A stretch of 57,747 bases of DNA from a virus (IMGVR_UViG_2917393062_000003:1-57747); one strand, 5' to 3'; shown: positions 26,630-43,959, numbered from the stretch's first letter. Made by a program: numbers and translations. Notes: generated by a model not told the origin, from the sequence alone.

Positions 26630-26691
26630 TACTAGCCTCCTTACTGTTAGGTGGCGTTCAGTATACGTAGAAAAAAAAAATAAAAAAAAGC

Positions 26692-26742
26692 TTGAAGTGC
26701 AAGTCACCTAAAAGTAGCATAATCCTCAAAGGTGACTTGCAC
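26692..26742 (+). promoter_or_regulatory. rightward promoter bracketed by a perfect 13-bp inverted repeat (operator)
   Basis: -35 TTGAAG, 17-nt spacer, -10 TAGCAT; inverted repeat GTGCAAGTCACCT (26697-26709) / AGGTGACTTGCAC (26730-26742); upstream A-tract. Confidence 0.5.
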
Positions 26743-26823
26743 CTTAAAGACAAAGCCCCGCAAGTGTCGTTACCACTCACAGGGCTTCTAACCACCAACG
26801 ATAACGAGAGTATCGAGGTAGCT

Positions 26824-27030
26824 ATGTTAAATCATACCACACACCCGCAAGGGCGGGACTCGCACAACCTGAATAAATATATCTGGCGTTTTATCGCTCT
26901 GAGCACGGCACAACCGCGCGTGATTACCATTGAGGCCACCAGTGAACAGGAAGCCTGTCAGCAATCACCGGCTGGCTGCGTGATGGTATTCGCCGCCCAT
27001 ATTCGTCAGGGGGTGCACCATGTGCAATAA
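26824..27030 (+). CDS. hypothetical small protein (satellite rightward operon gene 1)
   Basis: ATG 26824 with SD GAGG. Confidence 0.4.
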   Translation: MLNHTTHPQGRDSHNLNKYIWRFIALSTAQPRVITIEATSEQEACQQSPAGCVMVFAAHIRQGVHHVQ

Positions 27031-27256
27031 CACCCGTCCGGACTCAGCCGCCGAAGCTATCAGAACGCTAATGCACGCGCTGATTGATATTTCATGCACG
27101 GCAGCAACCGCAGAAAAACACATTACCAGAGAGACGGAATATGCAGGGGCGATAATCCCGCATTCGCTGGCATATGTGCAGCTTAGTGCCGACATGGCAC
27201 TGGATGAGGCAGGCAAAATTCTTACCGCAGATATCCAGGGGGGACGCCATGCATAA
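27020..27256 (+). CDS. hypothetical small protein
   Basis: overlapping, translationally coupled ORF. Confidence 0.4.
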   Translation: MCNNTRPDSAAEAIRTLMHALIDISCTAATAEKHITRETEYAGAIIPHSLAYVQLSADMALDEAGKILTADIQGGRHA

Positions 27257-27461
27257 TCATGAAGCGCACTTACCTGTAGTGCTGAATGTGCCATCAGATT
27301 ATACGGGGCGCGTACTGGTGTATCTGGAAAAAGGCCGGGTTAAATGCCAGTGCCGTTTAATGGAAAACGAATTTATCAGCACTCTTGCGGGATTTTCTGA
27401 AATGCTCACTAAATCTGGTGTTAGTGCAGACCAGTTACGCGGGGGCGATTATGCGAAATAA
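27249..27461 (+). CDS. hypothetical small protein
   Basis: ATG 27249 overlapping upstream stop. Confidence 0.4.
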   Translation: MHNHEAHLPVVLNVPSDYTGRVLVYLEKGRVKCQCRLMENEFISTLAGFSEMLTKSGVSADQLRGGDYAK

Positions 27462-27669
27462 ACGTGATATTGAAGACCTGGCATTTGAAGCCCTGCACTC
27501 TGCGAAAAAGATCAGGGAAGTCGTCAATATGTGGATGAACAGCCTTAGCACCGATGAATCCGATAGCAGAGAAGAAATTCTTATTTCTTTGTTGTTAGAC
27601 CTGGCAAATACACAGGTTTCTCTGACATCTGATATTGAGCTCGCCGCTAAAAAGCTGCCTCTGGAGTAA
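27451..27669 (+). CDS. hypothetical small protein
   Basis: ATG 27451 overlapping upstream stop. Confidence 0.4.
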   Translation: MRNKRDIEDLAFEALHSAKKIREVVNMWMNSLSTDESDSREEILISLLLDLANTQVSLTSDIELAAKKLPLE

Positions 27670-27799
27670 AAAAACATGAAAAAGAAAAAATTCTGGCTTT
27701 ACTGCCAGCGGTCACGCTCGGCCTGAAATCCGCCCCGGTGATATTTTCCGGGATAAATACGGCAGCACGATAACGATTAAAACTGTCGATGATTTTCGT

Positions 27800-27991
27800 G
27801 TGACCTATATCCGCGAAGGTTATGCGCATCCCTGCGTGTCGTCACATATGCGCTTTGACAGGGAGTTCACCTTGGTAAGCAAAGCACCACCAGCAGAATT
27901 AAGCGACATCGACAGAATCATGCGCGTTACAGGAATGGAACGCATTAAGGCAGTACGTGAAATTATTCGTGAACGGGGAAAGGCAAAATGA
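27800..27991 (+). CDS. hypothetical small protein (GTG start)
   Basis: 63-aa ORF ending in ATGA overlap with the replication gene; weak RBS. Confidence 0.25.
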   Translation: MTYIREGYAHPCVSSHMRFDREFTLVSKAPPAELSDIDRIMRVTGMERIKAVREIIRERGKAK

Positions 27992-30111
27992 AGCGCGCAC
28001 CAAACTTAAAGCACCAGCCAGCCGATAAAATGACGGAGGTTATCATCTTTGCGGGTAGTGATGCGTGGAGCCATGCGAAAGAGTGGCAGGAATGGGCAGG
28101 TAAGCATATTGCCGCCGACAATGTGCCGCCTGTCGTTCTGTCAGATGAACACCTGAAAGATATTACCGGTTATCAAATTATTGATGATAGTCGTCAGTGT
28201 GTGCGTGTTTACCGCGCAGGGCACATCACTGAACGTAGCCTTACACAGATCGTCACGTTGCTGGCTGTGGCTGGCGTGAAGACCGTATACGAATACGCGG
28301 GGATAACTGACACCAGCCCGGCGGATTTATCCGACCAGTTGCCTCGCCTCAAAGACGAATACGAGCGCGGGGAAAGTCTGGTGTTGCCCTTAAAGAAAAA
28401 AATCACAGAAAGCCCGGGTGATGATGAATTAAAGCCCCGCGTTGAAAGCCGCGCCGATGGTGTTTTCTGGGTAACGCCAAAAGTGGATAAGCAGTCAGGC
28501 GAAATTATCCGGCCTGAGACGTGGTTATGTTCCCCGCTTGAACTACTGGGAACGGGGACAATCGGTAAAGAGCATTACCGCGTGATGCGCTGGAAAAAAT
28601 TCGCAAATCATGAAGTCATCACAATGGCGGTTCCGTGCGGTGGCATTGGCGACCGTGACGGCTGGCGGCTGCTGAAAGACCACGGACTGAACGTAACAAC
28701 TAACGGCAAAAATAGGGCTATCCTGGCTGACTGGATGCAGTTAAGCGGAAGCCATGAGGAATGGCAGTTAAGCACAACAACGGGCTGGCATTTTGGCGCG
28801 TACATCATGCCGGACGGTTCGGTCATTGGTGATTGCGAAAAGCCAGTCCTGTTTACCGGAAAAACGGCTGCTGTTAATGGCTATTCCGTGGCAGGAACGG
28901 CGGAGGGTTGGCGCGATACCGTGGCGCGGCTGGCTGGTGGTAATCCGTCCATGATGCTGGGTGTGGCGGTATCGTTATCCGCACCATTAATCGGGCTGGT
29001 GGGTGCTGACGGCTTCGGGGTACATCTTTTCGAACAGTCATCGGCAGGGAAAACCACCACACAGAACATCGCATCCAGTTTATGGGGAGAGCCGGACGCA
29101 CAACGGCTGACCTGGTACGGCACGGCGTTAGGTATCGCCAACGAGGCCGAAGCACATAATGACGGGCTGTTACCCCTGGATGAAATAGGTCAGGCCGGAA
29201 ACGCGCGGGAGGTGTCCACGTCAGCCTATACGCTGTTTAACGGTTCCGGGAAATTACAGGGGGCAAAGGACGGCGGCAACAGGGAGATAAAACACTGGCG
29301 AACGGTGGCAATCAGTACCGGAGAAATGGACGTTGAAACATTCCTCAAAACGGAAGGGATAAAAGTCAAGGCGGGGCAGCTTGTCCGCCTGCTTAACGTG
29401 CCAATGGAAAAAGCCACACAATTTCACGAATACAGCACCGGAAAGGCACACGCAGACGCGTTAAAGGATGCCTGGACAGAAAATCACGGGGCGGCGGGGC
29501 GTGAATGGGTTAAATGGTTGGCAGACCATCAGCAGGAGGCAAAGGACACGGTAAGGGCATGCCGTGAACGGTGGCGCAACCTGATACCGGAGAGCTACGG
29601 CGAGCAGGTACACCGCGTGGGTGAGCGTTTCGCCATACTGGAGGCCGCGCTTGTGCTTTCCGGTCATGTTACTGGCTGGGATGTTCAGGCGTGCCGCGAT
29701 GCCATACAGCATAATTTTTATGCCTGGGTGAAGGAGTTCGGCACGGGTAACAGGGAGTTTAAACAGATGGTTGAACAGGCAGAGGCTTTTTTAGCGTCGT
29801 TCGGATTCAGCAGATACCTTCCGTGGCCCAACACCGACGAGCGTGATTTACCGATTAAAGAGCTTGCCGGATACAGAAAGGGGAGTATCAGAAACGAAGA
29901 TGACGAGTTCCGTTTTTACACGTTCCCGCATGTATTTGAGGGTGAGATAGCACAGGGATTTAATCCGTCTCACTTTGCCCGCGCGTTGAGTGCTGCCGGA
30001 ATGCTGGAAGCGGGTAACGATCGCCGTTACAAGAAAAAGGCGCTCGGCAAAATTGGGGGGAAGCAGCATGTTTTTTACGTGCTGATGTTCCAGCCTGAGG
30101 CAGAAGATTAA
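27988..30111 (+). CDS. satellite replication protein with P-loop NTPase (DUF927-like primase/helicase class)
   Basis: 707 aa; Walker A SSAGKTT; iterons immediately downstream; family name from memory. Confidence 0.6.
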   Translation: MKRAPNLKHQPADKMTEVIIFAGSDAWSHAKEWQEWAGKHIAADNVPPVVLSDEHLKDITGYQIIDDSRQCVRVYRAGHITERSLTQIVTLLAVAGVKTVYEYAGITDTSPADLSDQLPRLKDEYERGESLVLPLKKKITESPGDDELKPRVESRADGVFWVTPKVDKQSGEIIRPETWLCSPLELLGTGTIGKEHYRVMRWKKFANHEVITMAVPCGGIGDRDGWRLLKDHGLNVTTNGKNRAILADWMQLSGSHEEWQLSTTTGWHFGAYIMPDGSVIGDCEKPVLFTGKTAAVNGYSVAGTAEGWRDTVARLAGGNPSMMLGVAVSLSAPLIGLVGADGFGVHLFEQSSAGKTTTQNIASSLWGEPDAQRLTWYGTALGIANEAEAHNDGLLPLDEIGQAGNAREVSTSAYTLFNGSGKLQGAKDGGNREIKHWRTVAISTGEMDVETFLKTEGIKVKAGQLVRLLNVPMEKATQFHEYSTGKAHADALKDAWTENHGAAGREWVKWLADHQQEAKDTVRACRERWRNLIPESYGEQVHRVGERFAILEAALVLSGHVTGWDVQACRDAIQHNFYAWVKEFGTGNREFKQMVEQAEAFLASFGFSRYLPWPNTDERDLPIKELAGYRKGSIRNEDDEFRFYTFPHVFEGEIAQGFNPSHFARALSAAGMLEAGNDRRYKKKALGKIGGKQHVFYVLMFQPEAED

Positions 30112-30132
30112 CCCCTGTGTGAGGTGAAAAGT

Positions 30133-30257
30133 TGCGGGTTATGCGGGTTATCCTGTGTATAAGTGCATTAACTGTATGAATAAAAAGGAAATCAATAACC
30201 CGCACGTAACCCGCAAAACGGCAGTTATAACCCGCAAAAGTGCGATTATAACCCGCA
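30133..30257. repeat. iteron cluster (TAACCCGCA units in both orientations), candidate replication origin
   Basis: two inverted-orientation units at 30133-30150 and four direct units between 30196 and 30257. Confidence 0.6.
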
Positions 30258-30320
30258 GAATTTCACCGTAAGGGTGTAAACAAGCGTAACAATCAACGTT
30301 AAAACCGGAGAACAGACAGC

Positions 30321-30743
30321 ATGACAGCACAGATAGCAGCTTACGGGCGGCTGGTGGCTGACCCGCAGTTAAAGACCACCAGCAAAGGGACACAAATGGC
30401 GATGGCGAGTATGGCAGTTCCCCTGCCGTGCAGCCAGGCAGATGACGGAACGGCGACGATGTGGTTATCCGTCCTGGCGTTTGGCAGACAGGCCGACGCA
30501 CTGGCAAAACACCACAAAGGCGAACTGGTGAGCGTGGCGGGTAACATGCAGGTAAGCCAGTGGACAGGTCAGAACGGCGAAATGCGGCAGGGTTGGCAGG
30601 TCATCGCAGACAGCGTAATCAGTGCGCGAACGGCGCGACCGGGCGGCAAAAAAGGCCAGCAGGGCCAGGCTACTGACGCACTGAACAGGGCAAAACAACA
30701 GGCGGGGAATGATGATCCGTACGGGGACGGGATACCGTTTTAA
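30321..30743 (+). CDS. SSB-like OB-fold protein with acidic C-terminal DGIPF tip
   Basis: 140 aa; Gly/Gln-rich linker and C-terminal DDPYGDGIPF resembling the SSB DDDIPF tail. Confidence 0.55.
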   Translation: MTAQIAAYGRLVADPQLKTTSKGTQMAMASMAVPLPCSQADDGTATMWLSVLAFGRQADALAKHHKGELVSVAGNMQVSQWTGQNGEMRQGWQVIADSVISARTARPGGKKGQQGQATDALNRAKQQAGNDDPYGDGIPF

Positions 30744-30758
30744 GCAGTGAGGTACAGC

Positions 30759-31040
30759 ATGATTAAAGACAGCAAAGCGGAAGAACTGGAGGCTAAAGGG
30801 CTGTACCGGAGAGCGGCGGCGCGTTGGGCTGATGTTATGTGGCTGGTGAGCACTGACAAGGAGCGCGAACAGGTGGCAAAGCGTCGCGCGGAATGTATCC
30901 GTAAGGCAGCGCGCCAACCAGTCATACCGGATAATTTCGGAATACTGAAAGAGGCCATAAACCGCACACATACCGGGATGGGCTTACAGAAACCTGGCGG
31001 TGAGATGTTCAGGAACTACCCGAAAAAAAAGGATAATTGA
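30759..31040 (+). CDS. PerC-like regulator (tentative)
   Basis: MIKDSKAEELEAKGLYRRAAARWADVM; family assignment from memory. Confidence 0.4.
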   Translation: MIKDSKAEELEAKGLYRRAAARWADVMWLVSTDKEREQVAKRRAECIRKAARQPVIPDNFGILKEAINRTHTGMGLQKPGGEMFRNYPKKKDN

Positions 31041-31085
31041 TAACGGTTGTTAACTGTTTCTGGTATCGTGGCAGCAGGAGGAAAC

Positions 31086-31334
31086 ATGCCAGTGACATTT
31101 GAAGAAGTCCAGCAACATAAAAAGCTTCATGATTTTGATGATCTGGAAACCACGACAGTAAAAAAATATCGCCGGCTGCTTTCTTCCGATGCGTTATTTT
31201 TTGTGGATCATCATGATTTTCTGCGTAGCTCACTGACCGGGGAAATTTTCGCAACCAACCGTGAGCAGGTGGAAGCGATGATCGAATATCTGTGGAAAAT
31301 AAGGCGCAGAATGCGTGATCCCGTGAAACGGTAG
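31086..31334 (+). CDS. hypothetical protein
   Basis: ATG 31086 with SD AGGAGG. Confidence 0.45.
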   Translation: MPVTFEEVQQHKKLHDFDDLETTTVKKYRRLLSSDALFFVDHHDFLRSSLTGEIFATNREQVEAMIEYLWKIRRRMRDPVKR

Positions 31335-31343
31335 AATAATAAT

Positions 31344-31372
31344 GGCCTGGTATTTTCCAGGCCATTTTTTTT
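31344..31372. terminator. rho-independent terminator between convergent genes
   Basis: ggcctgg-tatttt-ccaggcc followed by 8 T. Confidence 0.65.
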
Positions 31373-31844
31373 AGAAGTCGATCTCTGTATCGCGATTAAA
31401 TTCATCGCTAAGGTAAAGTGCTTCGCTTGGGCATTTTCCGTTTTCCAGTAATGTTTCCCAGAAATCTTTATCGAAACACCCCTCAAGATACAGATAGCGG
31501 CAGATGTGAAGTAAATCACTTCGTGTCCATCCGTGCATGCTGCTACTTGTTACACCATATTCACTTTCTAGTTTATAGAATGTGAGCGCCTCCCGGTCGT
31601 GCCAGGCTTTGCACAGACGATCGTATATCTTTTTAGCTTTGTTTTTAGATGTGCCGAAAAACTCTTCGTAAATTTCATGTGGGCGAGCAGGAATACTTCC
31701 GTCGCCATCCTGCAAGAAAGGATAAACATCTGCCTCCCAGGCATACACGTAAGAATCGCTGAACTCATCATAGTGTTTACCAAGGTGGAGAATCTGCAAT
31801 CGTTGCTGAATGAACATTGCTTTTTTCAGTTCATTTTCTGACAT
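31371..31844 (-). CDS. opposite-strand cargo protein of unknown function (candidate accessory or defence gene)
   Basis: 157 aa; only minus-strand gene in the satellite core; noticeably lower GC than neighbours; own upstream region. Confidence 0.55.
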   Translation of the reverse strand: MSENELKKAMFIQQRLQILHLGKHYDEFSDSYVYAWEADVYPFLQDGDGSIPARPHEIYEEFFGTSKNKAKKIYDRLCKAWHDREALTFYKLESEYGVTSSSMHGWTRSDLLHICRYLYLEGCFDKDFWETLLENGKCPSEALYLSDEFNRDTEIDF

Positions 31845-32138
31845 AGTTCGTTCCTCCTGATTGACGAGCAGAAAATGTACGGAACAGCTTATTTATTTTT
31901 TCAGGTTTTGTAAATTATTTGTTCGTGGTTGTTCCAGGTTGTTCGGTGATTCTGGCTGATGTTTACATACTGATTTTTATGTATATGTTGGCGTGTGGCA
32001 CTCAGACGTGAGCCGCCACAATGCCGCCTGACCCCCTGCGCGATGCCGGGTTGATCTGCGAGATGCCGGGAGTGTCGGGCGGCGCTCCCTCCGTGTTGGT
32101 TTCACGTCCTGAATCTTAACCAATACGAGAAAACCTTC

Positions 32139-33284
32139 ATGAAGAAATTAATCGAACTCCGCCAGCAAAAAACCGCCCTGAAAAACCAGATGCGATCCCT
32201 GCTGGAAAAAGCCGACAGTGAAAACCGCAGCCTGAACGATGACGAGGGCAAACAGTTTGATGAACTGCGTGCAAAAGCCGATTCCCTCGACACAGAAATT
32301 TCCCGTCTTGAAGCTGTTGCGGATGAAGAACGTAACCAGCCAGGTGTTTCCGTCGAAGAGAAAATCACCAAAGACGAACTGCGCTCTTACATTCTGACCG
32401 GGGAAACCCGCAACCTGTCCGGCAGTGTCCCGGCTGATGGTGGTTATACGGTTATCCCGGAACTGAACAGAGAAATTATGCGTCAGCTTTCTGATGAATC
32501 GGTGATGCGTAAAATCTGTACCGTTAAAACCATTCACAGCAATGAATTTAAGCAACTGGTTTCTGCCGGGGGTGCGGTCGTTGAACACGGCGAAGAAGGT
32601 GCGGCACGTAACCAGACGGCAACACCAAAACTGAATGAAGTCAGTATCCGCCTGTATCCGATCTACGCTTACCCGAAAACCACTCAGGAAATTATCGATT
32701 TTTCCGAAGTCGATATTATGGGCTGGTTATCTTCTGAAATTGGCGACACTTTCGTTGATACCGAAGAAATGGATCTGGTTTCTGGTGATGGCGAGAAAAA
32801 AGCTAAAGGTTTCCTGGCTTTTCCGCGCACTGCGGATAACGACAAAACCCGTCCTTTCGGTACGCTCCAGACGAAAAAAGTTACTGGCAGTCTCAGCGCC
32901 GACATGCTGATTGACCTGAAATTTACGCTGCGCAATAAGTACCGCAAAAAAGCTGTATGGGTGATGAACTCAAATACAGCCGCCTCCGCACAAAAACTGA
33001 AAAATGCCACTGGTGATTACATCTGGCGCGATCGTTTACAGGCTGGTGATCCTGATTCTCTGCTGGGGCTTCCGGTTGAATATCTGGAATTTATGCCGGA
33101 CGGTGTGATTGCAGTAGGTGACTTTAAGCGCGGTTATTTCATCGTTGACCATGAAACCGGTACGCGTACCCGTCCGGATTTCAGCGAACCCGGATTCATT
33201 AACATCTATACCCAGAAATATCTGGGCGGTGGTGTGGTGGATTCGAACGCCATCAAGATTCTGGAAATTCAGGCTGGCAAGTAA
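32139..33284 (+). CDS. HK97-family major capsid protein (satellite)
   Basis: 381 aa; paralogous in architecture to prophage MCP at 41463-42686. Confidence 0.8.
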   Translation: MKKLIELRQQKTALKNQMRSLLEKADSENRSLNDDEGKQFDELRAKADSLDTEISRLEAVADEERNQPGVSVEEKITKDELRSYILTGETRNLSGSVPADGGYTVIPELNREIMRQLSDESVMRKICTVKTIHSNEFKQLVSAGGAVVEHGEEGAARNQTATPKLNEVSIRLYPIYAYPKTTQEIIDFSEVDIMGWLSSEIGDTFVDTEEMDLVSGDGEKKAKGFLAFPRTADNDKTRPFGTLQTKKVTGSLSADMLIDLKFTLRNKYRKKAVWVMNSNTAASAQKLKNATGDYIWRDRLQAGDPDSLLGLPVEYLEFMPDGVIAVGDFKRGYFIVDHETGTRTRPDFSEPGFINIYTQKYLGGGVVDSNAIKILEIQAGK

Positions 33285-33333
33285 TGAGCAAAGGGGGCTT
33301 CGGCCTCCTTTTTCAGCTTTATGGAGTACACCG

Positions 33334-33894
33334 ATGAAAAATACCGATTTTGAAATCCGTACATCTGAACTGACCGCCAGTGATAAAAAACTGGTGGGTT
33401 ATGCCGTTCGCTGGAACAGCCTTTCAGAAATTATCTGGGACGAATTCCGCGAACAGTTTACGCCGGGGGCTTTTGCTGACTATCTGGCGGCGGGTAATGA
33501 TGTGCGCTGCCTGTATGAGCATGACTATACCCGACTGCTGGGGCGCACCAAATCCGGAACACTGGTACTGACTGAGGACAACACCGGGCTACGTTTTGAA
33601 CTGACACCGCCTGATACCCAGCTTGGAAAAGATGTGCTTACGCTGGTGGAGCGTGGCGACATTACAGGAATGAGCTTTGGCTTTCGCGCATTATGCGAAG
33701 AATGGAATATCGCGCAAAAACCGTATCTGCGCACTGTTACCGCCGCAGAACTTCGTGAAATCACGATAACGTCAATGCCTGCTTATCCCGAATCTGGCGT
33801 GGAGATTGCCCGCCGTTCGTTGTTTGCACAGCACCCTGAATTACGCCCGACAGGAAATAATCGTCATCGCTGGGCTGAACTGGCGGGGTTGTGA
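33334..33894 (+). CDS. HK97-family prohead protease (satellite)
   Basis: about 186 aa from MKNTDFEIR with SD GGAG; paralog of 40798-41448. Confidence 0.75.
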   Translation: MKNTDFEIRTSELTASDKKLVGYAVRWNSLSEIIWDEFREQFTPGAFADYLAAGNDVRCLYEHDYTRLLGRTKSGTLVLTEDNTGLRFELTPPDTQLGKDVLTLVERGDITGMSFGFRALCEEWNIAQKPYLRTVTAAELREITITSMPAYPESGVEIARRSLFAQHPELRPTGNNRHRWAELAGL

Positions 33895-33895
33895 T

Positions 33896-35110
33896 ATGTG
33901 GTGGCCTTTTAGTCGTAAAAAAAGCGATCTGCGTAACCTGTCCATTGATGATTTTCTGGCGCTGTCCGGCGTACCGAATACCGGATCCGGAGAATATGTT
34001 TCTGCCGGGACGGCTGAATCATTGCCTGCTGTGATGAACGCGGTTTCTGTCATCGCTGAGGCGGTGGCCACGATGCCGTGTTATCTGTATCTGGTACGTA
34101 ATGACAAGGGCAGGGAGGCGCGGGAATGGCTGGACAGTCACCCGGTCGATATTCTGCTGAATGAGCAGCCTAATTCGTGCCAGACACCTTACCAGTTTAA
34201 ACGCACAATGATGCGTCACTGCCTGCTGAACGGTAACGCCTATGCGGTTATTGAGTGGGGGCGGGACGGTCAGCCAAAATCACTTCATCCTTATGCGCCG
34301 GGTTGTGTTGTACCGGAACGCACTGGCGCACACAAATACCGCTATACCATCACCGAACCCTATACAGGAACGGTGCGCACGTATTTACAGGAAGAAGTCC
34401 TGCATCTCCGCTATGCCTCGGATGATGGCTTTCTGGGACGTTCCCCCGTCACGATTTGCCGTGAGGCGCTGGGGCTTGGCCTTGCTCAACAGCGTCACGG
34501 AGCCAGCATTATGAAAGATGGCATGATGGCGGCAGGGGTTATTACGTCAGGCGAATGGCTGGACGGCGTGAAAGGTAAACAGGCATTAGACGCCCTGGAA
34601 CGCTACAAGGGGGCGAAAAATGCCGGAAAAACGCCAATCCTTGAAGGGGGCATGGATTACAAGCAACTGGGGATGAGTAACCAGGATGCGGAATGGCTGG
34701 CCTCCCGTCGCTTCTCCATTGAAGACATCGCCCGGATGTTCAACGTATCGCCTATTTTTCTGCAGGAATACAGCAACAGCACCTACAGCAATTTCAGCGA
34801 GGCAAGCCGCGCGTTTCTGACCATGACAATGCGCCCATGGCTGGCGAACTTCGAACAGCAAATTAAGGCCGCTTTGCTGGTGGCTTCTCCCGTACCTGGT
34901 ACCCGTTATCTGGTTGAGTTTGATTCAGCCGATTTATTACGCGCCACCCCTACCGAACGTTACGCCACGTATGAGAAAGGGATTAAGAACGGGATCATGA
35001 ATCCGAACGAAGCCCGCGAACGTGAGGGGATGCCGCCGCGTGAAGGTGGCGACGAATTCAGCCAGGCATGGAAGCAGACGGTGGAAATTAAAGGTGAAAA
35101 AGATGAGTGA
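33896..35110 (+). CDS. portal protein (satellite)
   Basis: about 404 aa from MWWPFSRKK; paralog of prophage portal 39579-40820. Confidence 0.75.
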   Translation: MWWPFSRKKSDLRNLSIDDFLALSGVPNTGSGEYVSAGTAESLPAVMNAVSVIAEAVATMPCYLYLVRNDKGREAREWLDSHPVDILLNEQPNSCQTPYQFKRTMMRHCLLNGNAYAVIEWGRDGQPKSLHPYAPGCVVPERTGAHKYRYTITEPYTGTVRTYLQEEVLHLRYASDDGFLGRSPVTICREALGLGLAQQRHGASIMKDGMMAAGVITSGEWLDGVKGKQALDALERYKGAKNAGKTPILEGGMDYKQLGMSNQDAEWLASRRFSIEDIARMFNVSPIFLQEYSNSTYSNFSEASRAFLTMTMRPWLANFEQQIKAALLVASPVPGTRYLVEFDSADLLRATPTERYATYEKGIKNGIMNPNEAREREGMPPREGGDEFSQAWKQTVEIKGEKDE

Positions 35111-35402
35111 AGAAAAAATTACACCTGATGAGGTCAGGGCACATCTTCGCCTTGATAACTTCTACGATGAAGGCGAACTTCTGAAAATGTATACCGATGC
35201 GGCGCTGGAAGCCTGCCAGAAGCATATCGGGAAACGTTTTGAAGACGGGCTGGAATTTACCCCGGCAATACGTGTTGGTTGCCTGATGTACATTGCTTTC
35301 CTGTACGAGAACAGGGAAGCGGTTTCACCTGTGGAGCAGTCTGAACTGCCTATGGCTATTTCTGCGCTCTGGTCGGTTTATCGTGATGTAGGGGTGTACT
35401 GA
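35103..35402 (+). CDS. head-tail connector (gp6-like) protein (satellite)
   Basis: 99 aa; HLRLDNFYDEGELLK pattern shared with prophage 42733-43056. Confidence 0.65.
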   Translation: MSEEKITPDEVRAHLRLDNFYDEGELLKMYTDAALEACQKHIGKRFEDGLEFTPAIRVGCLMYIAFLYENREAVSPVEQSELPMAISALWSVYRDVGVY

Positions 35403-35842
35403 TGCCGTGGCAACCATTAAGGCGATGCACTGAGCCGGGCTGTAATAAGCGCGTGAAGTCCGGCAAGTGCGAAGATCACAGGCGGGCTGCATGGCGTGCA
35501 GAGGATGCCAGACGGGGACACCGCCGCGCGCGCGGGTATTCCCGACAGTGGGACAAATACCGCGCCCTGTACCTGAGCAAAAACCCGTTATGCGTGCGTT
35601 GTCTGGCTAAGGGGATTTATACGCCAGCTCTTGTGGTGGATCACATCATTCCCATCAATGGCGGCGGTGATGTTCTCTTCTGGCCTGAGTGGAATCACCA
35701 GGCATTGTGCCAGACGTGCCACAACCGTAAGACGACACGGGAAGATCCAGCCACGAAAGCGAACCGTAAGGCGGGCATGTATCGCGAGCAGGAAGAACGG
35801 GCGGCACATCGTAACGACTGGATGTATGGCGATGATGACTGA
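35402..35842 (+). CDS. HNH endonuclease (satellite, terminase-associated)
   Basis: 146 aa; Cys-rich, VDHIIPINGGG...CQTCHNRKT motif. Confidence 0.8.
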   Translation: MPWQPLRRCTEPGCNKRVKSGKCEDHRRAAWRAEDARRGHRRARGYSRQWDKYRALYLSKNPLCVRCLAKGIYTPALVVDHIIPINGGGDVLFWPEWNHQALCQTCHNRKTTREDPATKANRKAGMYREQEERAAHRNDWMYGDDD

Positions 35843-36011
35843 ACAGGAGCAAAACAGGCTGATACGTGGACTGATAAGGCAGCGTGACACATGGAAGGCA
35901 CAGGAGACAGGGCACAAAGCCAACAGGACAGGGCGCACAGAACGCACCACAGCGAAGCGATTAACCGACCGTGACCGCGAGGTCATGGAATGTTTTCGCA
36001 ATCGCTGGTGA
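35826..36011 (+). CDS. hypothetical small basic protein
   Basis: 61-aa ORF overlapping HNH stop. Confidence 0.25.
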   Translation: MAMMTEQEQNRLIRGLIRQRDTWKAQETGHKANRTGRTERTTAKRLTDRDREVMECFRNRW

Positions 36012-36130
36012 GGCCGTCAGAGGGGGTGGGGGAGGTTTTCAGGACAAAACCGTCCCTGCCGGACACCGACCGCCTCCTCAAATTTTTGTGCACGGAAATT
36101 TTTTTGAAAATAATTGGGCGAAAAAAGAAC

Positions 36131-36487
36131 ATGGCAAGACCACCAAAAGCCCCCGCTTACCTGGATGAAATCGCGGTCAGGCAGTGGAAGGAAAAATCGC
36201 GCCAGCTTTCCGGGCGGGAAGACCTTACCCCCGCCGACTGGAGCAATCTGGAACTGTATTGCGTTAACTACTCCATATACCGCAAAGCCGTCGAAGACCT
36301 TGCGACGCGCGGCTTCAGCATTGTTAACAGTCAGGGCAGCGAGAGCAGAAACCCCGCCCTGAGCGCAAAGGCTGACGCGGAAAGAATAATGATCAAAATG
36401 GCTTCTTTGCTGGGTTTTGACCCGGTAAGCCGCCGCAGAAATCCACCGGAAACAGAGGAAGAGGACGAGCTTGACCGCCTGGCATGA
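36131..36487 (+). CDS. terminase small subunit (satellite)
   Basis: start MARPPKAPAYLDEIAVRQW; paralog of 21703-22185. Confidence 0.65.
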   Translation: MARPPKAPAYLDEIAVRQWKEKSRQLSGREDLTPADWSNLELYCVNYSIYRKAVEDLATRGFSIVNSQGSESRNPALSAKADAERIMIKMASLLGFDPVSRRRNPPETEEEDELDRLA

Positions 36488-38132
36488 GTACGCAGAAGGC
36501 GTAAAAAACGGCAAAATTACGGCCTGTAAACGACTGAAACAGGCCGTTAAACGGTATTTTTCTGACCTTGAAAACCCCCTTTACACGTTCGATCCGGAGG
36601 TCGTGGAGCGGTTTATTGCCTTTTCTAGGGTGTGTCCGCACGTAAAAGGCGCAATGCGCGGTAGCCCCATTGAGCTGGAGCCGTGGCAGCAGTTCGCCTT
36701 TGCCTGCATCCTGGGCTTTAAGGTTAAGGCCACCGGACGGCGCAAATACACCAGCGCATTCATTGAAGTACCGCGAAAAAATGCCAAATCCACGGTCGCC
36801 GCTATCCTGGCTAACTGGTTTCTGGTTATGGAACACGGGCAGCAGGATATTTACACCGCCGCCGTGAGTCGTGATCAGGCGCGGATCGTGTTTGATGATG
36901 CGCGTCAGATGTGCCTTTTATCCCGACCGTTACGAAAGCGGGTAAATATTCAGGCGCACAAGGTGATACACCCGAAAACCAACAGCCTGTTAAAGCCACT
37001 GGCAGCAAAAGCGGCAACCATTGAGGGGACAAACCCGAGTCTTGCCATTGTGGATGAATATCACCTGCACCCTGACAACGGGGTTTATTCCGCGCTTGAA
37101 CTGGGAATGGGGGCGCGTCCGGAGGGGTTATTATTTGCCATCACCACATCGGGGAGCAACGTTGTTTCAGCCTGTAAACAACACTACGACTATTGCTGCC
37201 AGATACTGGATGGTGAAGAGGTGAACGAATCCATGTTCGTGCTGATTTACGAGCTGGATGATGAAAGCGAGGTTGACGATCCGGCGATGTGGATAAAGGC
37301 GAATCCCAATATCGATGTTTCCGTCGATCGTGAAAAACTGGCCTCAACCATCCAGAAAGCGCGGGGTATTCCGTCGCAGTGGGTGGAAATGCTCACCAAG
37401 CGATTCAATATCTGGTGTCAGGGGGCTACGCCGTGGATGGGTAACGGTGCATGGGCGGAGTGCGCCGGAACGTTCGCGGAGGCGGATTTATACGGGCAGG
37501 AGTGCTACGCGGGGCTGGACTTATCATCAACCAGCGATATTTCCAGCGTGTGCTATGCCTTTCCGGTCGGTAAAAAGATTATGCTGGTTTCCCGTCACTA
37601 TCTGCCGGAATTTCAGCTACAGAACCCCGCCAATAAAAACCGCGCCATCTATCGCCAGTGGGTAAAGGCGGGCTGGATACGCACAACACCGGGTGACTGC
37701 ATTGATTATGACCGTATCCGTGATGACATCATGGCGGATGCAGAGAATTTCAATATCAGGCTGGTGGGCTTCGATACATGGAACGCCACGCACCTGAGGA
37801 CGCAGCTACAGGGGGCAGGATTTGAGGTGGAGCCGTTCCCGCAAACATACCTTCGTTTCAGTCCGGCGGCGAAATCGTTCGAAGTTTTTGTTAACCGGAA
37901 GGTGATTGTTCATCGTGGTGATCCGGTGCTGGCCTGGTCAATGAGTAATGTTGTGATGCAGAGTGACGCGAACGCCAATATCAAGCCGAACAAGAAAAAA
38001 TCATCCAACAAGATAGACCCGAGCGTTGCGGCGCTGATGGCGTTTGGCACATTCCAGGCAGAGCATGAGGAATTTGCATTCGATATGAGCGACAGCCACA
38101 AAGAGCGGCTTGCGGCGTTTGATGGTGTGTAA
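36471..38132 (+). CDS. terminase large subunit (satellite, intact)
   Basis: 553 aa; TTG start overlapping terS; PRKNAKST Walker A-like; homologous to both split prophage terL parts. Confidence 0.85.
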   Translation: MTAWHEYAEGVKNGKITACKRLKQAVKRYFSDLENPLYTFDPEVVERFIAFSRVCPHVKGAMRGSPIELEPWQQFAFACILGFKVKATGRRKYTSAFIEVPRKNAKSTVAAILANWFLVMEHGQQDIYTAAVSRDQARIVFDDARQMCLLSRPLRKRVNIQAHKVIHPKTNSLLKPLAAKAATIEGTNPSLAIVDEYHLHPDNGVYSALELGMGARPEGLLFAITTSGSNVVSACKQHYDYCCQILDGEEVNESMFVLIYELDDESEVDDPAMWIKANPNIDVSVDREKLASTIQKARGIPSQWVEMLTKRFNIWCQGATPWMGNGAWAECAGTFAEADLYGQECYAGLDLSSTSDISSVCYAFPVGKKIMLVSRHYLPEFQLQNPANKNRAIYRQWVKAGWIRTTPGDCIDYDRIRDDIMADAENFNIRLVGFDTWNATHLRTQLQGAGFEVEPFPQTYLRFSPAAKSFEVFVNRKVIVHRGDPVLAWSMSNVVMQSDANANIKPNKKKSSNKIDPSVAALMAFGTFQAEHEEFAFDMSDSHKERLAAFDGV

Positions 38133-38212
38133 CGGAATGGATGAGAGAGGACAATGCTCATTTAATGGAATAAATTTTCAGTATTACCGGTACCCACTTT
38201 CAGGGATGTTTT

Positions 38213-38370
38213 TGCGGGTTATTTGAGGGGGAGGTGCGGGTTATTTTGAATGTCTTGCGGGTTACATTCTGGCTGATATTTAAATACGTTGTTTTTTAAC
38301 GCATTGATATTAAAGAGTAAAAAATACTTAGCACGCGAAGATAACCCGCTAACCCGCATAACCCGCGCTG
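38213..38370. repeat. second iteron cluster (AACCCGC units), crr-like
   Basis: three rc units at 38213-38264 and three direct units at 38341-38370; same repeat unit as 30133-30257. Confidence 0.55.
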
Positions 38371-38552
38371 TTTTGTATATATATACGAAAAATTGCATTC
38401 AGGGGGGGATCGAAATTTCTACTGCCTCTTATCTCTTTGAGTGCTCACCTCGTCAGATTGTTACACACAAGAAATAAAAAATGCTTCGCGATGGTAGGTC
38501 GAATCACTGTATCAAAAAACGGTGTGTATCAGCATTAAAACAATACAGATAC

Positions 38553-38573
38553 GTGTATTGCGCTGTGTATTGC
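38553..38573. repeat. 21-bp subterminal repeat, right copy
   Basis: GTGTATTGCGCTGTGTATTGC; one mismatch to left copy at 23343-23363. Confidence 0.5.
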
Positions 38574-38659
38574 TTGATGATTTATAAAGACTGTTTTTTC
38601 ATGTTAAACGATTGATATACAGGTGATTTTAAAAAACTTGAAATATTCTCACGAAACAC

Positions 38660-39385
38660 ATGAATGTGTGGGTCACTGCCGAATCTGCCTGGATGGACAT
38701 GATTAAGTGGGAGAAGTGCGAATACATTGCTCCACAGCATGAGCTGAAAACATATCCCATGTGGGTCGGCGTCGACCTTGCTCATAAGATTGATATCTGT
38801 GCGGCGGCAAAACTCTGGCGAACCGATAACGGACATGTTCATGCCGATTTTAAATTCTGGCTTCCGGAAGGACGGCTGGAACGATGCTCGCGGCAGCAGG
38901 CAGAACTTTACCGGAAGTGGGCAGAGATGGGGAAGCTCATCCTGACGGATGGTGATGTTATCGATCATGCTCAGATAAAAAGTGACTTACTGGAATGGAT
39001 TGGCGGTGAAAACCTCAGGGAACTGGGATTTGACCCGTGGAGCGCAATGCAGTTCAGTCTGGCGCTGGCTGAAGAAGGGATACCGCTGGTGGAAGTTCCG
39101 CAGACGGTCCGCAATCTGTCAGAGGCTATGAAGGAAACGGAATCACTGGTTTATGCCGGACGTTTCCACCACAGTAATCATCCGGTTATGAACTGGATGA
39201 TGTCTAACGTTACGGTAAAACCGGACAAAAACGACAATATCTTCCCGAATAAATCCACGCCGGAAGCCAAAATCGACGGCCCTGTTGCGATGTTTACAGC
39301 AATGAGCCGGATGCTGGTCAATGGCGGTGAACCGGAGCCGGATCTGTCTGAACATCTGGTCAGCGTGGGTATCCGTTCGCTTTAA
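38660..39385 (+). pseudogene. terminase large subunit, C-terminal part (continues the frame from 38642; would fuse to 22185-23212 on precise excision)
   Basis: 241 aa aligning with the last ~240 aa of satellite TerL; in-frame upstream codons encode NILTKH before MNVWV. Confidence 0.8.
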
Positions 39386-39396: not shown

Positions 39397-39579
39397 ATGT
39401 TTCTGATAATTCTCACGCCACTGGTGGGCGTGCTGGGGGCGCTTTTGCTGTCGTATGGCGCATGGCTGATTTATCCCCCGGCAGGTTTTGTTGTTGCAGG
39501 GGCGCTGTGCCTGTTCTGGTCGTGGCTGGTTGCGCGTTATCTCGATCGCGGTCAGCGGGTCGCCTCCGGAGGTGAGTAA
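39397..39579 (+). CDS. small membrane protein
   Basis: 60 aa, hydrophobic, SD GAGGG; between terL and portal. Confidence 0.4.
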
Positions 39580-40820
39580 TGTTTTTCCAGGGGCTTTTTC
39601 AGCGCAAAAATAACACTCCCGTTACAACACCCGGGATGCTTGCGGAAGAGCTGGGATTGTCATACGACACCTATACCGGAAAGCGGATCAGTAGTCAGCG
39701 GGCCATGCGGCTGACGGCGGTGTATTCCTGCGTCAGGGTGCTGGCGGAGTCTGTTGGTATGCTGCCCTGCAGCCTCTACAAAATCACCGGCACCCTTAAA
39801 ACACGGGCGGTGGATGAACGACTGCATAAGCTGGTTTCAGCCAAACCCAATGGCTACATGACGCCGCAGGAATTCTGGGAGCTGGTTATCGTCTGCCTGT
39901 GTCTGCGGGGTAATTTTTACGCTTACAAGGTGAAGGCGCTGGGGGAAGTTGTGGAGCTTCTTCCGATAGATCCGGGTTGTGTGGAACCGAAGCTGAACAG
40001 CCAGTGGCAGCCGGTTTATCAGGTGACGTTTCCGGATGGTTCCGTGGATGTGTTGACTCAGGATGAAATCTGGCATGTGCGTACTCTGACGCTGGACGGA
40101 CTGGTCGGGCTGAATCCCATTGCGTATGCGCGTGAGGCCATTTCACTGGCAGCGGCAACTGAGGAGCACGGCGCCAGGTTGTTTGGTAACGGTGCTGTGA
40201 CATCCGGTGTGTTGCGTACGGAACAAAAGCTCACGCCGGATGCTTATGAGCGCATGAAGAGGGATTTTGAGGAGCGTCATCTTGGGCTGGGTAATGCGCA
40301 CCGTCCGATGATTCTGGAAATGGGGCTGGACTGGAAGCCGGTGGCACTGAATGCCGAGGACAGTCAGTTCCTGGAAACCCGCAAGTTTCAGCTGGAAGAA
40401 ATCTGTCGTCTTTTCCGCGTGCCACTGCATATGGTGCAGAACACTGACCGCGCCACCTTCAACAATATTGAAGAGCTGGGGCTTGGTTTTATTAACTATT
40501 CCCTTGTGCCGTATCTGACCCGTATTGAACAGCGGATCAATACAGGGCTGGTCAGGGAGAGTAAAAAGGGAAAATTTTACGCCAAATTTAATGCCGGAGC
40601 GTTGTTGCGTGGTGACATGAAATCCCGCTTTGAAGCGTATGCCACGGGGATTAACTGGGGGATTTATTCCCCTAATGACTGCCGTGATCTGGAAGATATG
40701 AACCCTCGCCCGGGCGGTGATGTGTATCTGACGCCGATGAACATGACCACCAGACCCTCTGCTGGCGATGACAACGGTAAGAAAAAGGAGAGTGGAGATG
40801 CAGACAAAACAGCGTCTTGA
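39579..40820 (+). CDS. portal protein (prophage)
   Basis: 413 aa; SD GGAGGTGAG; position and length typical of HK97-type portal. Confidence 0.8.
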   Translation: MFFQGLFQRKNNTPVTTPGMLAEELGLSYDTYTGKRISSQRAMRLTAVYSCVRVLAESVGMLPCSLYKITGTLKTRAVDERLHKLVSAKPNGYMTPQEFWELVIVCLCLRGNFYAYKVKALGEVVELLPIDPGCVEPKLNSQWQPVYQVTFPDGSVDVLTQDEIWHVRTLTLDGLVGLNPIAYAREAISLAAATEEHGARLFGNGAVTSGVLRTEQKLTPDAYERMKRDFEERHLGLGNAHRPMILEMGLDWKPVALNAEDSQFLETRKFQLEEICRLFRVPLHMVQNTDRATFNNIEELGLGFINYSLVPYLTRIEQRINTGLVRESKKGKFYAKFNAGALLRGDMKSRFEAYATGINWGIYSPNDCRDLEDMNPRPGGDVYLTPMNMTTRPSAGDDNGKKKESGDADKTAS

Positions 40821-41448
40821 TATACCGCTGAACCTGAAATCCGTCAGTGATTCCGGGGAGTTTGAAGGTTACGGCTCTGTTTTTGGTATTAAGGACAGCC
40901 ACGATGATGTGGTGGTCCCCGGTGCTTTTACCGAAACACTTCAGAAATGGAGTGAAAAAAAGGCGCTGCCTGCGTTGCTCTGGCAGCACCGCATGGATGA
41001 GCCCATCGGTGTGTACACCGAAATGAAAGAAGATGATGTCGGGCTTTATGTCAGGGGGCGATTACTCGTTGATGATGATCCCCTGGCAAAACGTGCACAT
41101 GCTCATATGAAGGCCGGTTCTTTAACCGGCCTTTCTATTGGCTACATCCTGAAAGACTGGGAGTACGACCGTGAAAAAGGGGTATTCCTGCTGAAAGAGA
41201 TCGACCTGTGGGAGGTCAGTCTGGTGACGTTTCCTTCCAATGATGAGGCTCGCATCAGCGATGTGAAAAATGCGCTGGCGCGTGGGGAGATCCCTGATCA
41301 GAAAATTATTGAGCGGGTCCTGCGCGATGTTGGACTTTCGCGAACCCAGGCCAAAGCATTCATGGCCGGGGGATATGGCGCTTTATCCCTGCGTGATGCT
41401 GAGGATGTGGATGCCGCACTGAATGCACTGAAAAATCTTAAATTTTAA
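40798..41448 (+). CDS. prohead protease (prophage)
   Basis: start MQTKQRLDIP with SD AAGGAG; HK97 protease-like. Confidence 0.75.
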   Translation: MQTKQRLDIPLNLKSVSDSGEFEGYGSVFGIKDSHDDVVVPGAFTETLQKWSEKKALPALLWQHRMDEPIGVYTEMKEDDVGLYVRGRLLVDDDPLAKRAHAHMKAGSLTGLSIGYILKDWEYDREKGVFLLKEIDLWEVSLVTFPSNDEARISDVKNALARGEIPDQKIIERVLRDVGLSRTQAKAFMAGGYGALSLRDAEDVDAALNALKNLKF

Positions 41449-41462: not shown

Positions 41463-42686
41463 ATGGCTGATGTTAAAGATGTGGAACAGGTCGCGCAGGA
41501 GTTGCAGCGGAAGTTTGACGATTTTAAGGAAAAAAACGACAAACGTATCGACGCGATCGAGCAGGAAAAGGGAAAACTTGCTGGTGAAGTGGAAACCCTC
41601 AACGGAAAACTGGCTGAACTGGAAAATCTGAAAAGCGATCTTGAAGCTGAACTGGCTGAAGTCAAGCGTCCGGCAGGCGGCACGCAAAATAAAGTTGCCG
41701 GTGAACATAAAGAAGCGTTTATCGGATTTATGCGCAAGGGGCGTGAAGACGGGCTGCGTGAGCTTGAGCGTAAGGCGCTTCAGGTAGGTAATGATGAAGA
41801 TGGTGGTTATGCCATTCCGGAAGAACTGGATCGCACCATTCTGACGCTGCTGAAAGATGAGGTGGTGATGCGCCAGGAAGCCACTGTGATCACCCTCGGT
41901 GGCTCGGATTATAAAAAACTGGTGAATCTGGGCGGCACAACGTCCGGATGGGTGGGGGAAACGGATGCACGTCCGGAAACCGCCACCTCAAAACTGGGGC
42001 TGATTGAACCCTTTATGGGGGAAATCTACGGCAACCCGCAGGCTACCCAGAAAATGCTCGATGATGCTTTCTTCAATGTGGAAGACTGGATCAACAGTGA
42101 GCTGGCGCTGGAATTTGCCGAACAGGAAGAAATTGCCTTTACCAGTGGCGACGGCAGCAAAAAACCAAAAGGTTTTCTGGCTTATGAGTCCACCGATGAA
42201 GATGACAAGACCCGTGCGTTTGGCAAACTTCAGCACATTGCTTCCGGCGCGGCTTCTGGCGTGACCGCTGATGCGATCATTAAACTGATTTACACCCTGC
42301 GTAAGGCGCACCGCAGCGGCGCGAAGTTCATGATGAACAACAGCAGCCTGTTTGCCATTCGTCTGCTGAAGGATAACGACGGAAATTATCTGTGGCGTCC
42401 GGGTATTGAGCTGGGTCAGCCTTCTTCTCTGGCAGGGTATGGCATCGTTGAGAATGAACAGATGCCGGATATTGCTGCCGATGCAAAAGCCATTGCGTTT
42501 GGTAACTTCAAACGTGGCTATACCATCGTTGATCGCATCGGTACCCGTATCCTGCGCGATCCGTACACCAATAAACCGTTTGTGGGTTTTTATACCACCA
42601 AGCGAACCGGCGGTATGCTGGTGGATTCTCAGGCGATTAAGCTGATGAAAATTGGGGCTGCAACCCGCCAGAAAGCCGCTGCGTAA
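41463..42686 (+). CDS. HK97-family major capsid protein (prophage)
   Basis: 407 aa with N-terminal coiled-coil delta-domain-like region; weak terminator follows. Confidence 0.8.
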   Translation: MADVKDVEQVAQELQRKFDDFKEKNDKRIDAIEQEKGKLAGEVETLNGKLAELENLKSDLEAELAEVKRPAGGTQNKVAGEHKEAFIGFMRKGREDGLRELERKALQVGNDEDGGYAIPEELDRTILTLLKDEVVMRQEATVITLGGSDYKKLVNLGGTTSGWVGETDARPETATSKLGLIEPFMGEIYGNPQATQKMLDDAFFNVEDWINSELALEFAEQEEIAFTSGDGSKKPKGFLAYESTDEDDKTRAFGKLQHIASGAASGVTADAIIKLIYTLRKAHRSGAKFMMNNSSLFAIRLLKDNDGNYLWRPGIELGQPSSLAGYGIVENEQMPDIAADAKAIAFGNFKRGYTIVDRIGTRILRDPYTNKPFVGFYTTKRTGGMLVDSQAIKLMKIGAATRQKAAA

Positions 42687-42732: not shown

Positions 42733-43056
42733 ATGCTCCTGAAAGAAGAGGAGATTAAATCTCATCTCCGGCTCGATGATGGTTTGTACAGTGACGGCGA
42801 TTTTCTGAAACTGCTGGCACAGGCGGTACAGAAAAGAACAGAGACATACCTGAACAGGAAGTTGTATGCACCGGAAGAGACGATTCCGGAAGACGATCCT
42901 GACGGGATGCATCTGACTGATGATGTTCGTCTGGCAATGCTGATGCTGGTCAGTCATTTTTATGAAAATCGCTCAACGATCACCGATGTGGAGAAGCTGG
43001 AAACGCCAATGAGTTTCAGATGGCTTGCTGGCCCTTACAGGATTGTCCCGCTATGA
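42733..43056 (+). CDS. head-tail connector (gp6-like)
   Basis: 107 aa; SD AGGAGG. Confidence 0.65.
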   Translation: MLLKEEEIKSHLRLDDGLYSDGDFLKLLAQAVQKRTETYLNRKLYAPEETIPEDDPDGMHLTDDVRLAMLMLVSHFYENRSTITDVEKLETPMSFRWLAGPYRIVPL

Positions 43057-43469
43057 AAATCAGGCAAAGTCAGACCAGTGCCACTTACCTTTTACCGGAT
43101 CCCGGAGAGCTGAATCGCCGAATAAAGATCCGCCTTCGGGTGGATGAACCCACCGCTGATTTTGGTACGGAGCCGACATATACGGAGTCGTTTGATGTCT
43201 GGGCAAAGGTGGCTCAGCCAGGCGCTGCCGCTTATCAGGGCTCAGTGCAGACAGAAAATATCGTTACGCATTATTTTACGATCCGTTTCCGTCACGACAT
43301 CACGGCAGATCATGAGGTGGTTTATTACGGTCAGGAGTACCGGATCCGGCGAATACGCGACCTGAACGGTCAGCGGCGTTTTTTATTGCTGGAATGTGAA
43401 GAACTGCGTACAGCGCGACGACGGGGTGAATGCCATGAATCAGACAGCATTTTTACACGTCGACTTTAA
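43053..43469 (+). CDS. putative head closure/adaptor protein
   Basis: ATGA-coupled ORF in the neck module. Confidence 0.45.
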   Translation: MKIRQSQTSATYLLPDPGELNRRIKIRLRVDEPTADFGTEPTYTESFDVWAKVAQPGAAAYQGSVQTENIVTHYFTIRFRHDITADHEVVYYGQEYRIRRIRDLNGQRRFLLLECEELRTARRRGECHESDSIFTRRL

Positions 43470-43959
43470 ACAACCAAAGGAGCTGGAGTTTAATCGCGCC
43501 CGTCTGCGTCGGGCATTTGTGCAGATCGGGCGCGTCTATATGCGCGACGCAAGACGTCTGGTGATTAAACGCGGACGATCCGGTCCGGGAGAGAACCCGG
43601 GATATCAGACCGGGCGTCTGGCCCGCTCCATCGGTTATTACGTTCCCAAAAAAACGACGCGTCGCCCCGGACTGATGGTGAAAATTTCTCCTAACCAGAA
43701 AAACGGGCAGGGGAATCGCCGTTTCCCTGAAGGCGCACCCTATTATCCGGCATTTCTGTATTACGGCGTTCGCCATTCAGCTTATGGAATGGATAAAAAG
43801 GATAAGCGGCAGAAGAAGCACCATTCTTCGGCTTTCCGACTGGCCCCGCGTAATAACTTTATGGCTGACGTTATTGAGCGGCGGCGTCACTGGACGCAGG
43901 AACTGTTGTCCCGTGAGCTGCAGCGTTCGTTACGTCCGGTAAAAAGGAAGCATAAATGA
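43435..43959 (+). CDS. putative neck/tail completion protein
   Basis: start MNQTAFLHVDF with SD; position in neck module. Confidence 0.4.
   Translation: MNQTAFLHVDFKQPKELEFNRARLRRAFVQIGRVYMRDARRLVIKRGRSGPGENPGYQTGRLARSIGYYVPKKTTRRPGLMVKISPNQKNGQGNRRFPEGAPYYPAFLYYGVRHSAYGMDKKDKRQKKHHSSAFRLAPRNNFMADVIERRRHWTQELLSRELQRSLRPVKRKHK

Follow-up and report, generated by a model that had tools for sequence, protein, structure and literature searches.

A satellite with its own head and packaging genes, probably a capsid-forming island of the EcCIEDL933 lineage, in the large terminase gene of a prophage

Why should a prophage hold two dissimilar sets of head and packaging genes? The viral sequence IMGVR_UViG_2917393062_000003:1-57747 (57,747 nucleotides, the whole of which we call the window) contains a prophage with a contractile tail and, at positions 32139-38132, a second set of such genes arranged in another order. 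A preliminary description, made from the sequence, assigned this set to a satellite that would encode its own diverged head and packaging proteins and dock its capsids onto helper tails. We find that the block is very probably the capsid/packaging operon of a capsid-forming phage-inducible chromosomal island (cf-PICI) that measures 15,443 bp, belongs to the EcCIEDL933 lineage and is integrated in the prophage terL gene at the site A:Terminase_1:246, with capsids and packaging of its own and tails made by a phage. The observations behind this reading are the content, order, divergence, intactness and constraint of the genes, the exact junctions of the island, a terL that can be restored, and the recurrence of the same arrangement in other genomes.

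The satellite head and packaging operon

The operon consists of seven intact genes on the + strand with full-length Pfam matches, encoding in order a major capsid protein (MCP), a prohead protease, a portal, a head-tail adaptor, an HNH endonuclease and the small and large terminase subunits TerS and TerL (Table 1). This is the order given in the preliminary description, except that its several connector proteins come down to a single connector gene, the gp6-like adaptor (Ad1). Neither tail nor holin genes were found with Pfam and PHROG among the scanned satellite open reading frames (ORFs) of the island (23213-38655, with all key genes on the + strand), nor in the annotation of near-identical copies by the Prokaryotic Genome Annotation Pipeline (PGAP); the earlier statement that the satellite has no tail genes stands.

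Sequence constraint was assessed against the independent copies of the element in E. coli KFu019 and rl0044. Differences in the head and packaging genes are almost all synonymous, with ratios of nonsynonymous to synonymous polymorphism (pN/pS) of 0-0.13 for MCP (0.03-0.05), protease, portal, HNH, TerS and TerL. The adaptor lies outside this range; it has the highest nonsynonymous rate and is the fastest-changing protein of the module. The satellite structural genes have kept their full length and show purifying selection, and the suggestion that they might be pseudogenes is rejected on the Pfam coverage and on these ratios, the adaptor apart.

A strong bidirectional terminator-like hairpin is present at 31341-31366, 3' of the PerC-like region, and a promoter-like site at 31962-31989, about 150 bp 5' of the satellite MCP gene. 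Together they suggest that the head and packaging genes form their own transcription unit, possibly activated by PerC.

Comparison of the satellite and helper gene sets

Each satellite protein has a counterpart of the same family in the prophage, at low sequence identity: MCP, 34-37% (E = 3e-63); protease, 20-24% (6e-4); portal, 32% (4e-61); adaptor, 30-32% (9e-18); HNH, 39-41% (2e-18); TerS, 27% (4e-9); and TerL, 29-33% (9e-55 and 2e-33 for the two helper halves). A recent duplication of the helper head/packaging module, or an assembly artefact, could place two sets of the same Pfam families within 20 kb of each other. Duplication is rejected because the pairwise identities reach only 24-41% and the window has no long (direct) DNA repeat that would connect one set with the other. 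An artefact is countered by the recurrence of the junctions in many complete genomes that were assembled independently, and by their presence in a published catalogue; we give this explanation practically no weight. The preliminary description had likewise held the pairs to be diverged and not recently duplicated, and none of them is near-identical.

In a search of a phage collection, the identity of true full-size phages to the MCP and TerL of the satellite did not exceed 37%. Matches at 57-83% come from short records (~3.8-16.5 kb) and from a single Klebsiella phage record of 106.5 kb. The short phage-labelled records with MCP/TerL at this identity include LR881103.1, OR544139.1, OR544138.1 and OR850982.1 (3.8-16.5 kb), and they resemble satellites of cf-PICI type, or parts of such satellites, more than phages. 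Judged by these protein comparisons, the satellite head genes are a separate deep lineage that has only fold and family in common with those of the helper. The word paralogs, used in the preliminary description, therefore overstates the relationship.

Gene order differs between the two sets in part because of where the linear map is opened. HNH, TerS and TerL are contiguous and co-oriented in both satellite and phage, and in both a gp6-like adaptor follows the head genes. The circular map of the phage reads cos-TerS-TerL-portal-protease-MCP-adaptor-...-HNH-cos and that of the satellite cos-TerS-TerL-att-int-...-rep-MCP-protease-portal-adaptor-HNH-cos, where cos is the packaging site. The position of the HNH-TerS-TerL block after the head genes in one and before them in the other is a circular permutation set by the position of the attachment site (att). 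The genuine rearrangement is the portal-protease-MCP trio, which stands in reverse order without inversion and does so in EcCIEDL933 as well. Record LR881103.1 (16.5 kb) agrees with the satellite circular map, with the TerL homolog at 363-2021, at one end of the record, and the MCP homolog at 12290-13438.

The segment between the small ORF and terS (36012-36130) is, by its position, a candidate satellite cos region. It aligns well with the pre-terS region of EcCIEDL933 and poorly with the helper HNH-terS spacer; a G-rich stretch is the sole feature common to the helper and satellite spacers.

Relationship to EcCIEDL933 and the cf-PICIs

EcCIEDL933, the prototype, is a 15.4-kb island with int, alpA, rep, MCP, protease, portal, head-tail connectors, HNH, TerS and TerL and with no tail genes (Alqurainy et al., bioRxiv 10.1101/2022.09.08.507074; Cell Host Microbe 2023). 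Mutagenesis, Southern blots and electron microscopy (EM) showed that its small capsids are satellite-made, that packaging of satellite and phage is mutually exclusive, and that helper tail genes alone are needed; the cf-PICI packaging module has low identity to that of the helper and a different gene organisation (bioRxiv 10.1101/2022.09.08.507074). These are experiments of the kind (EM, mutagenesis) that had been proposed for the present locus in the preliminary description.

We located EcCIEDL933 at NZ_CP008957.1 1680329-1694760, where the order is MCP, protease, portal, head closure, connector, HNH, a small ORF, TerS and TerL. The window element resembles it in size (~15.4 kb), in the succession int-alpA-...-DUF927-SSB-PerC followed by the head and packaging genes in the same order and orientation, and in having neither tail nor lysis genes. 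Protein identity is highest for TerL (93%), followed by TerS (88%), HNH (84%), DUF927 (83%) and portal (81%), and lower for MCP (75%), protease (63%) and adaptor (58%); the 61-aa small ORF is 80% identical. The two elements differ in their integrases (42% identical) and in their sites, EcCIEDL933 lying in the chromosome between roxA and phoQ and not in a prophage. EcCIEDL933 also has a head-closure gene in the portal-adaptor gap and a 94-aa ORF after terL, neither of which occurs in the window element.

Going by their homology to those of EcCIEDL933, the satellite genes would build small HK97-type capsids, the satellite HNH, TerS and TerL would package satellite DNA only, from a satellite-specific cos, and the filled heads would acquire phage-made tails. 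The idea of a satellite that has diverged head and packaging genes and docks its capsids onto helper tails thus gains support from the experiments on its relative, together with the common gene order and the 58-93% identity.

Among the features that characterise cf-PICIs, the element has an integrase at its end followed by AlpA, a primase, its own MCP, protease and portal, its own HNH, TerS and TerL, and no tail or holin genes; of the two neck genes (adaptor and connector/head closure) it has the adaptor only. SatelliteFinder uses a core set of 11 components, and its 'Type B' comprises elements with 10 of the 11, as in 459 of 969 catalogued cfPICIs (PMC10085698). The window element would correspond to this type, as a variant within the cf-PICI family and not one excluded from it. 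Classical Gram-negative PICIs (EcCICFT073, EcCIED1a) and P4 share with it the int-alpA-Bro-primase front end and helper dependence. They remodel helper-made capsids and lack a portal, TerL and adaptor of their own, whereas the window element has a complete capsid/terminase set.

Integration in the prophage terL gene

The prophage genes run HNH, TerS, TerL, portal, protease, MCP and connector, as had been described, but TerL is not one gene: the satellite splits it at nuclease profile position 63/64, and each half runs into non-TerL sequence. The split at TCACGAA is absent from the text of the preliminary description. In silico removal of 23213-38655 gives a 585-aa TerL ORF reading ...VNFFTKHMNVWVTAE..., with the junction sequence GTGAATTTTTTCACGAAACACATGAATG, and from end to end this restored protein shares 99.5% identity with the uninterrupted TerL of phages phi467 and vB_EcoM-606R7. 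The 325-nt reconstructed junction occurs uninterrupted in 905 complete E. coli genomes, and the island with both junctions in at least 32; PGAP annotates both terL halves as pseudogenes in KFu019 and rl0044. While the island is integrated the helper would have no full-length TerL, and excision would restore the gene.

PICIs embedded in their helpers (HE-PICIs) have been defined at 14 prophage late-gene sites, including A:Terminase_1:245/246 (Tommasini, Mageeney, Williams 2023, PMC10111431). The attL and attR sequences of the window, with the 'tcacgaa' identity, match the A_Terminase_1_246 E. coli entries in the supplement of that paper, where UMNF18 is entered as AGTD01000001.1/1112532-1127509, Eco146.15.A_Terminase_1_246. 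On this sequence match, the satellite site is the published one. As in HE-PICIs generally, a late gene is disrupted with no replacement sequence in attP, the element is co-oriented with it (int, alpA, primase and the head/packaging operon are all on the + strand, like terL), and the catalogued att identity block is present with its flanks. Its integrase shares 99-100% identity with those of the elements in KFu019 and rl0044; since these occupy the same site, and elements at this site are catalogued, membership in the HE-PICI integrase clade is implied, if indirectly.

HE-PICIs at A:Terminase_1:246 share the same co-orientation with terL, the 7-bp 'tcacgaa', near-identical att flanks, a size of 15-16 kb and a doubled motif. 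That work does not use the term cf-PICI for these elements, and their capsids are not its subject; otherwise there is no real difference between its elements and the one in the window. Induction was studied there for 11capE, at a capsid-gene site, where the composite excises and replicates and satellite excision then restores the late gene (PMC10111431). In the window no terminator-like site lies between the 5' part of terL and int, so that read-through from the helper late operon into the satellite is possible; activation by this route, like the small capsids, exclusive packaging and hijacked tails, would follow the example of relatives.

These features also bear on whether the block could be the tail-less remnant of a second, decayed prophage nested in the first. 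It has a full, phage-like set of HK97-type head and terminase genes, to which PGAP gives ordinary phage names. Its left half, however, is laid out as in a PICI (int, AlpA, Bro, DUF927 primase, SSB), with all genes pointing inward; its size is conserved at 15.4 kb, as in EcCIEDL933, with precise junctions in at least 32 genomes; its structural genes are intact and, the adaptor apart, constrained; true phages are no closer than 37% identity; and the prototype EcCIEDL933 has been shown by experiment to be a satellite. On architecture, recurrence and the wide identity gap to true phages we reject a decayed prophage as very improbable.

Neck genes and the source of tails

Several points weigh against our reading of the block as a cf-PICI operon of the EcCIEDL933 lineage. 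Capsid size, packaging specificity and tail source are extrapolated from that element. The 42% identity of the integrases makes the relationship to it a modular one, not one of whole elements. The head-closure gene of EcCIEDL933 is absent: tblastn of the satellite with the EcCIEDL933 head-closure protein gave no match, no second neck gene was seen among the small satellite ORFs, and the KFu019 and rl0044 copies lack it too. Published work has adaptor and connector together setting the tail compatibility of cf-PICIs, so with the head-closure gene missing the docking mechanism may differ from that of EcCIEDL933. Finally, the tail of the resident prophage is contractile and Mu-like, while the cf-PICIs studied use non-contractile siphovirus tails.

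The last point raises the question of whose tails would be used. The resident contractile-tail prophage might serve as a landing pad only, the satellite entering wherever the conserved terL sequence is found and taking compatible, non-contractile tails either from siphovirus prophages other than its host or from those that are free in the surroundings. Satellites that are nearly identical (95-100% at the protein level) do occupy the same terL site in siphovirus-type prophages, those of KFu019 and rl0044. Siphovirus-type prophages of other E. coli strains with the same terL and satellite share 85-89% identity with the window prophage in their head proteins, and their neck and tail genes are unrelated to its own. 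The helper neck proteins differ strongly among these hosts (adaptor, 29-43% identity between the window, KFu019 and rl0044 prophages), and published cf-PICIs rely on siphovirus tails and, once released as tail-less capsids, are able to acquire free ones. Conversely, at least two further complete genomes, those of UMNF18 and ETEC4090, have the same composite of satellite and sheath-type prophage, and in them the match to the window runs unbroken from where the satellite terL ends, across the junction and as far as the sheath gene; some 40 genomes carry a sheath-type prophage with intact terL. The missing head-closure gene, too, would fit the use of the resident helper's neck proteins. We consider the landing-pad explanation a serious one, with somewhat less than an even chance of being correct.

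A more speculative proposal, which we think rather unlikely, is that the terL-embedded cf-PICI lineage has lost head closure, keeping only the fast-evolving gp6-like adaptor, and may complete its neck with the head-closure/neck proteins of the resident helper, and so dock onto the tail of whichever prophage hosts it, including the contractile Mu-like tail of the window prophage. If this were true, one satellite could dock on any host-prophage tail; there is no report of a cf-PICI with a contractile tail.

Other features of the satellite

The integrase ORF opens at 23318, and we use the start at 23384 that PGAP uses in KFu019. No Rfam match was found within the satellite, and a search for tRNA genes gave none.

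Two repeat families were seen. The octamer TAACCCGC is found 13 times in the window, where 1.6 matches would be expected, and 12 of these copies make up two satellite clusters of six (Table 1). Cluster 1 looks iteron-like, from which we infer a candidate replication origin; it is conserved in KFu019, rl0044 and EcCIEDL933. Cluster 2 is conserved in KFu019 and rl0044, whereas the right end of EcCIEDL933 holds a single copy, so that the second cluster distinguishes the window element from it. A doubled motif, GTGTATTGC(N3)GTGTATTGC, occurs once on each side, ~100-130 bp from the att core. These doubled motifs are probably arm-type sites of the integrase, and they may be the 'doubled DNA motif' reported for HE-PICI attP (PMC10111431).

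The resident prophage

The prophage is mosaic: its early region is lambdoid (integrase, O/P-like replication genes, Q antiterminator, endolysin), its head is of HK97 type and its tail is contractile and Mu-like, and a Neck1-like protein (43396-43959) stands between the head completion protein and the tail terminator. Lambdoid phages of the SfV/SfI type likewise combine an HK97-like head and a Mu-like contractile tail; SfI was among the matches in the phage collection. The window prophage differs from them in that its terL is interrupted by the satellite.

In the interval from the Q antiterminator to the lysis genes stand a ParE-family toxin gene (17891-18151) and, next after it, a gene of helix-turn-helix/XRE type (18212-18586), a pair that is likely toxin-antitoxin cargo. 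The four Rfam matches in the window all lie in the prophage, outside the satellite, and form two pairs of isrK and C4 antisense RNA above Rfam gathering thresholds, at 1001-1183 (-) and 13434-13624 (+). One pair adjoins an ORF6N-domain gene (394-951, -). The copy that lies on the left side of the integrase gene (1216-2334) may point to a further element, or to a boundary of the prophage.

Table 1. Features of the satellite and of the surrounding prophage, in order of position in the window
Feature	Position	Strand	Basis or remark
Helper HNH endonuclease	21206-21556	+	Pfam HNH, 3.7e-16
Helper TerS, P27/Terminase_4 type	21703-22185	+	Pfam Terminase_4, 4.4e-26
Helper terL, 5' part	22185-23212	+	TerL_ATPase, and TerL_nuclease 2-63/286; interrupted by the satellite
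attL core TCACGAA	23206-23212	+	Alignment of attL, attR and uninterrupted attB
Doubled motif GTGTATTGC(N3)GTGTATTGC	23343-23363	+	Direct repeat family; 95% copy at 38553-38573
Satellite tyrosine integrase	23384-24607	+	Pfam Phage_integrase and Arm-DNA-bind_3
Satellite AlpA-family regulators, two genes	24573-24806, 24840-25148	+	Pfam Phage_AlpA, 2.5e-09 and 7.2e-10
Satellite Bro-N/anti-repressor-like gene	25203-25799	+	PHROG anti-repressor, 5.2e-77; PGAP 'BRO-N domain-containing protein' in homologous loci
Satellite DUF927 primase/helicase-type replication gene	27988-30111	+	Pfam DUF927, 5.8e-46
TAACCCGC cluster 1, six copies	30134-30256	two -, four +	3' of DUF927 gene
Satellite single-stranded DNA-binding protein (SSB)	30321-30743	+	Pfam SSB, 1.5e-15
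Satellite PerC-family activator	30747-31040	+	PHROG transcriptional activator families; PGAP 'PerC family'
Satellite MCP, HK97 fold family	32139-33284	+	Phage_capsid, 3.6e-60, profile 1-279/280
Satellite prohead serine protease	33334-33894	+	Pfam Peptidase_S78, 1e-45
Satellite portal	33896-35110	+	Phage_portal, 6.8e-93, profile 1-321/321
Satellite gp6-like head-tail adaptor (Ad1)	35103-35402	+	Phage_connect_1, 8.9e-05; PHROG Ad1, 7.7e-29
Satellite HNH endonuclease, packaging accessory	35402-35842	+	Pfam HNH, 1.3e-09
Small conserved ORF, 61 aa, in HNH-TerS gap	35826-36011	+	PHROG 3173, unknown function
Candidate satellite cos region	36012-36130	+	5' of terS; inferred from position alone
Satellite TerS	36131-36487	+	Pfam Terminase_4, 1.6e-23
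Satellite TerL, complete	36471-38132	+	TerL_ATPase 1-176/178; TerL_nuclease 5-284/286
TAACCCGC cluster 2, six copies	38214-38366	three -, three +	Near satellite right end/attR
attR core TCACGAA	38649-38655	+	Alignment of attL, attR and uninterrupted attB
Helper terL, 3' part	38656-39385	+	Nuclease profile positions 64-283
Helper portal	39579-40820	+	Pfam
Helper protease	40768-41448	+	Pfam
Helper MCP	41463-42686	+	Pfam
Helper gp6-like adaptor	42733-43056	+	Pfam
Helper head completion protein	43020-43469	+	Pfam
Helper contractile-tail module	43956-55086	+	Tail terminator, sheath (44687-46183), tube, tape measure, Mu-like baseplate (gp44-48 types), fibre; Pfam

Significance

The element family, its gene order, the low identity to helper genes and the exact terL site are all already published, and the UMNF18 composite is listed by name. 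The locus brings two published ideas together in one case: a satellite that has its own diverged capsid and terminase genes and steals tails only, and a satellite whose lodging in a late gene blocks helper packaging until it leaves. What it adds is a lineage with one neck gene instead of two, found in both siphovirus-type and contractile-tail prophages, which makes it a convenient natural system for the question of how tail compatibility is set.

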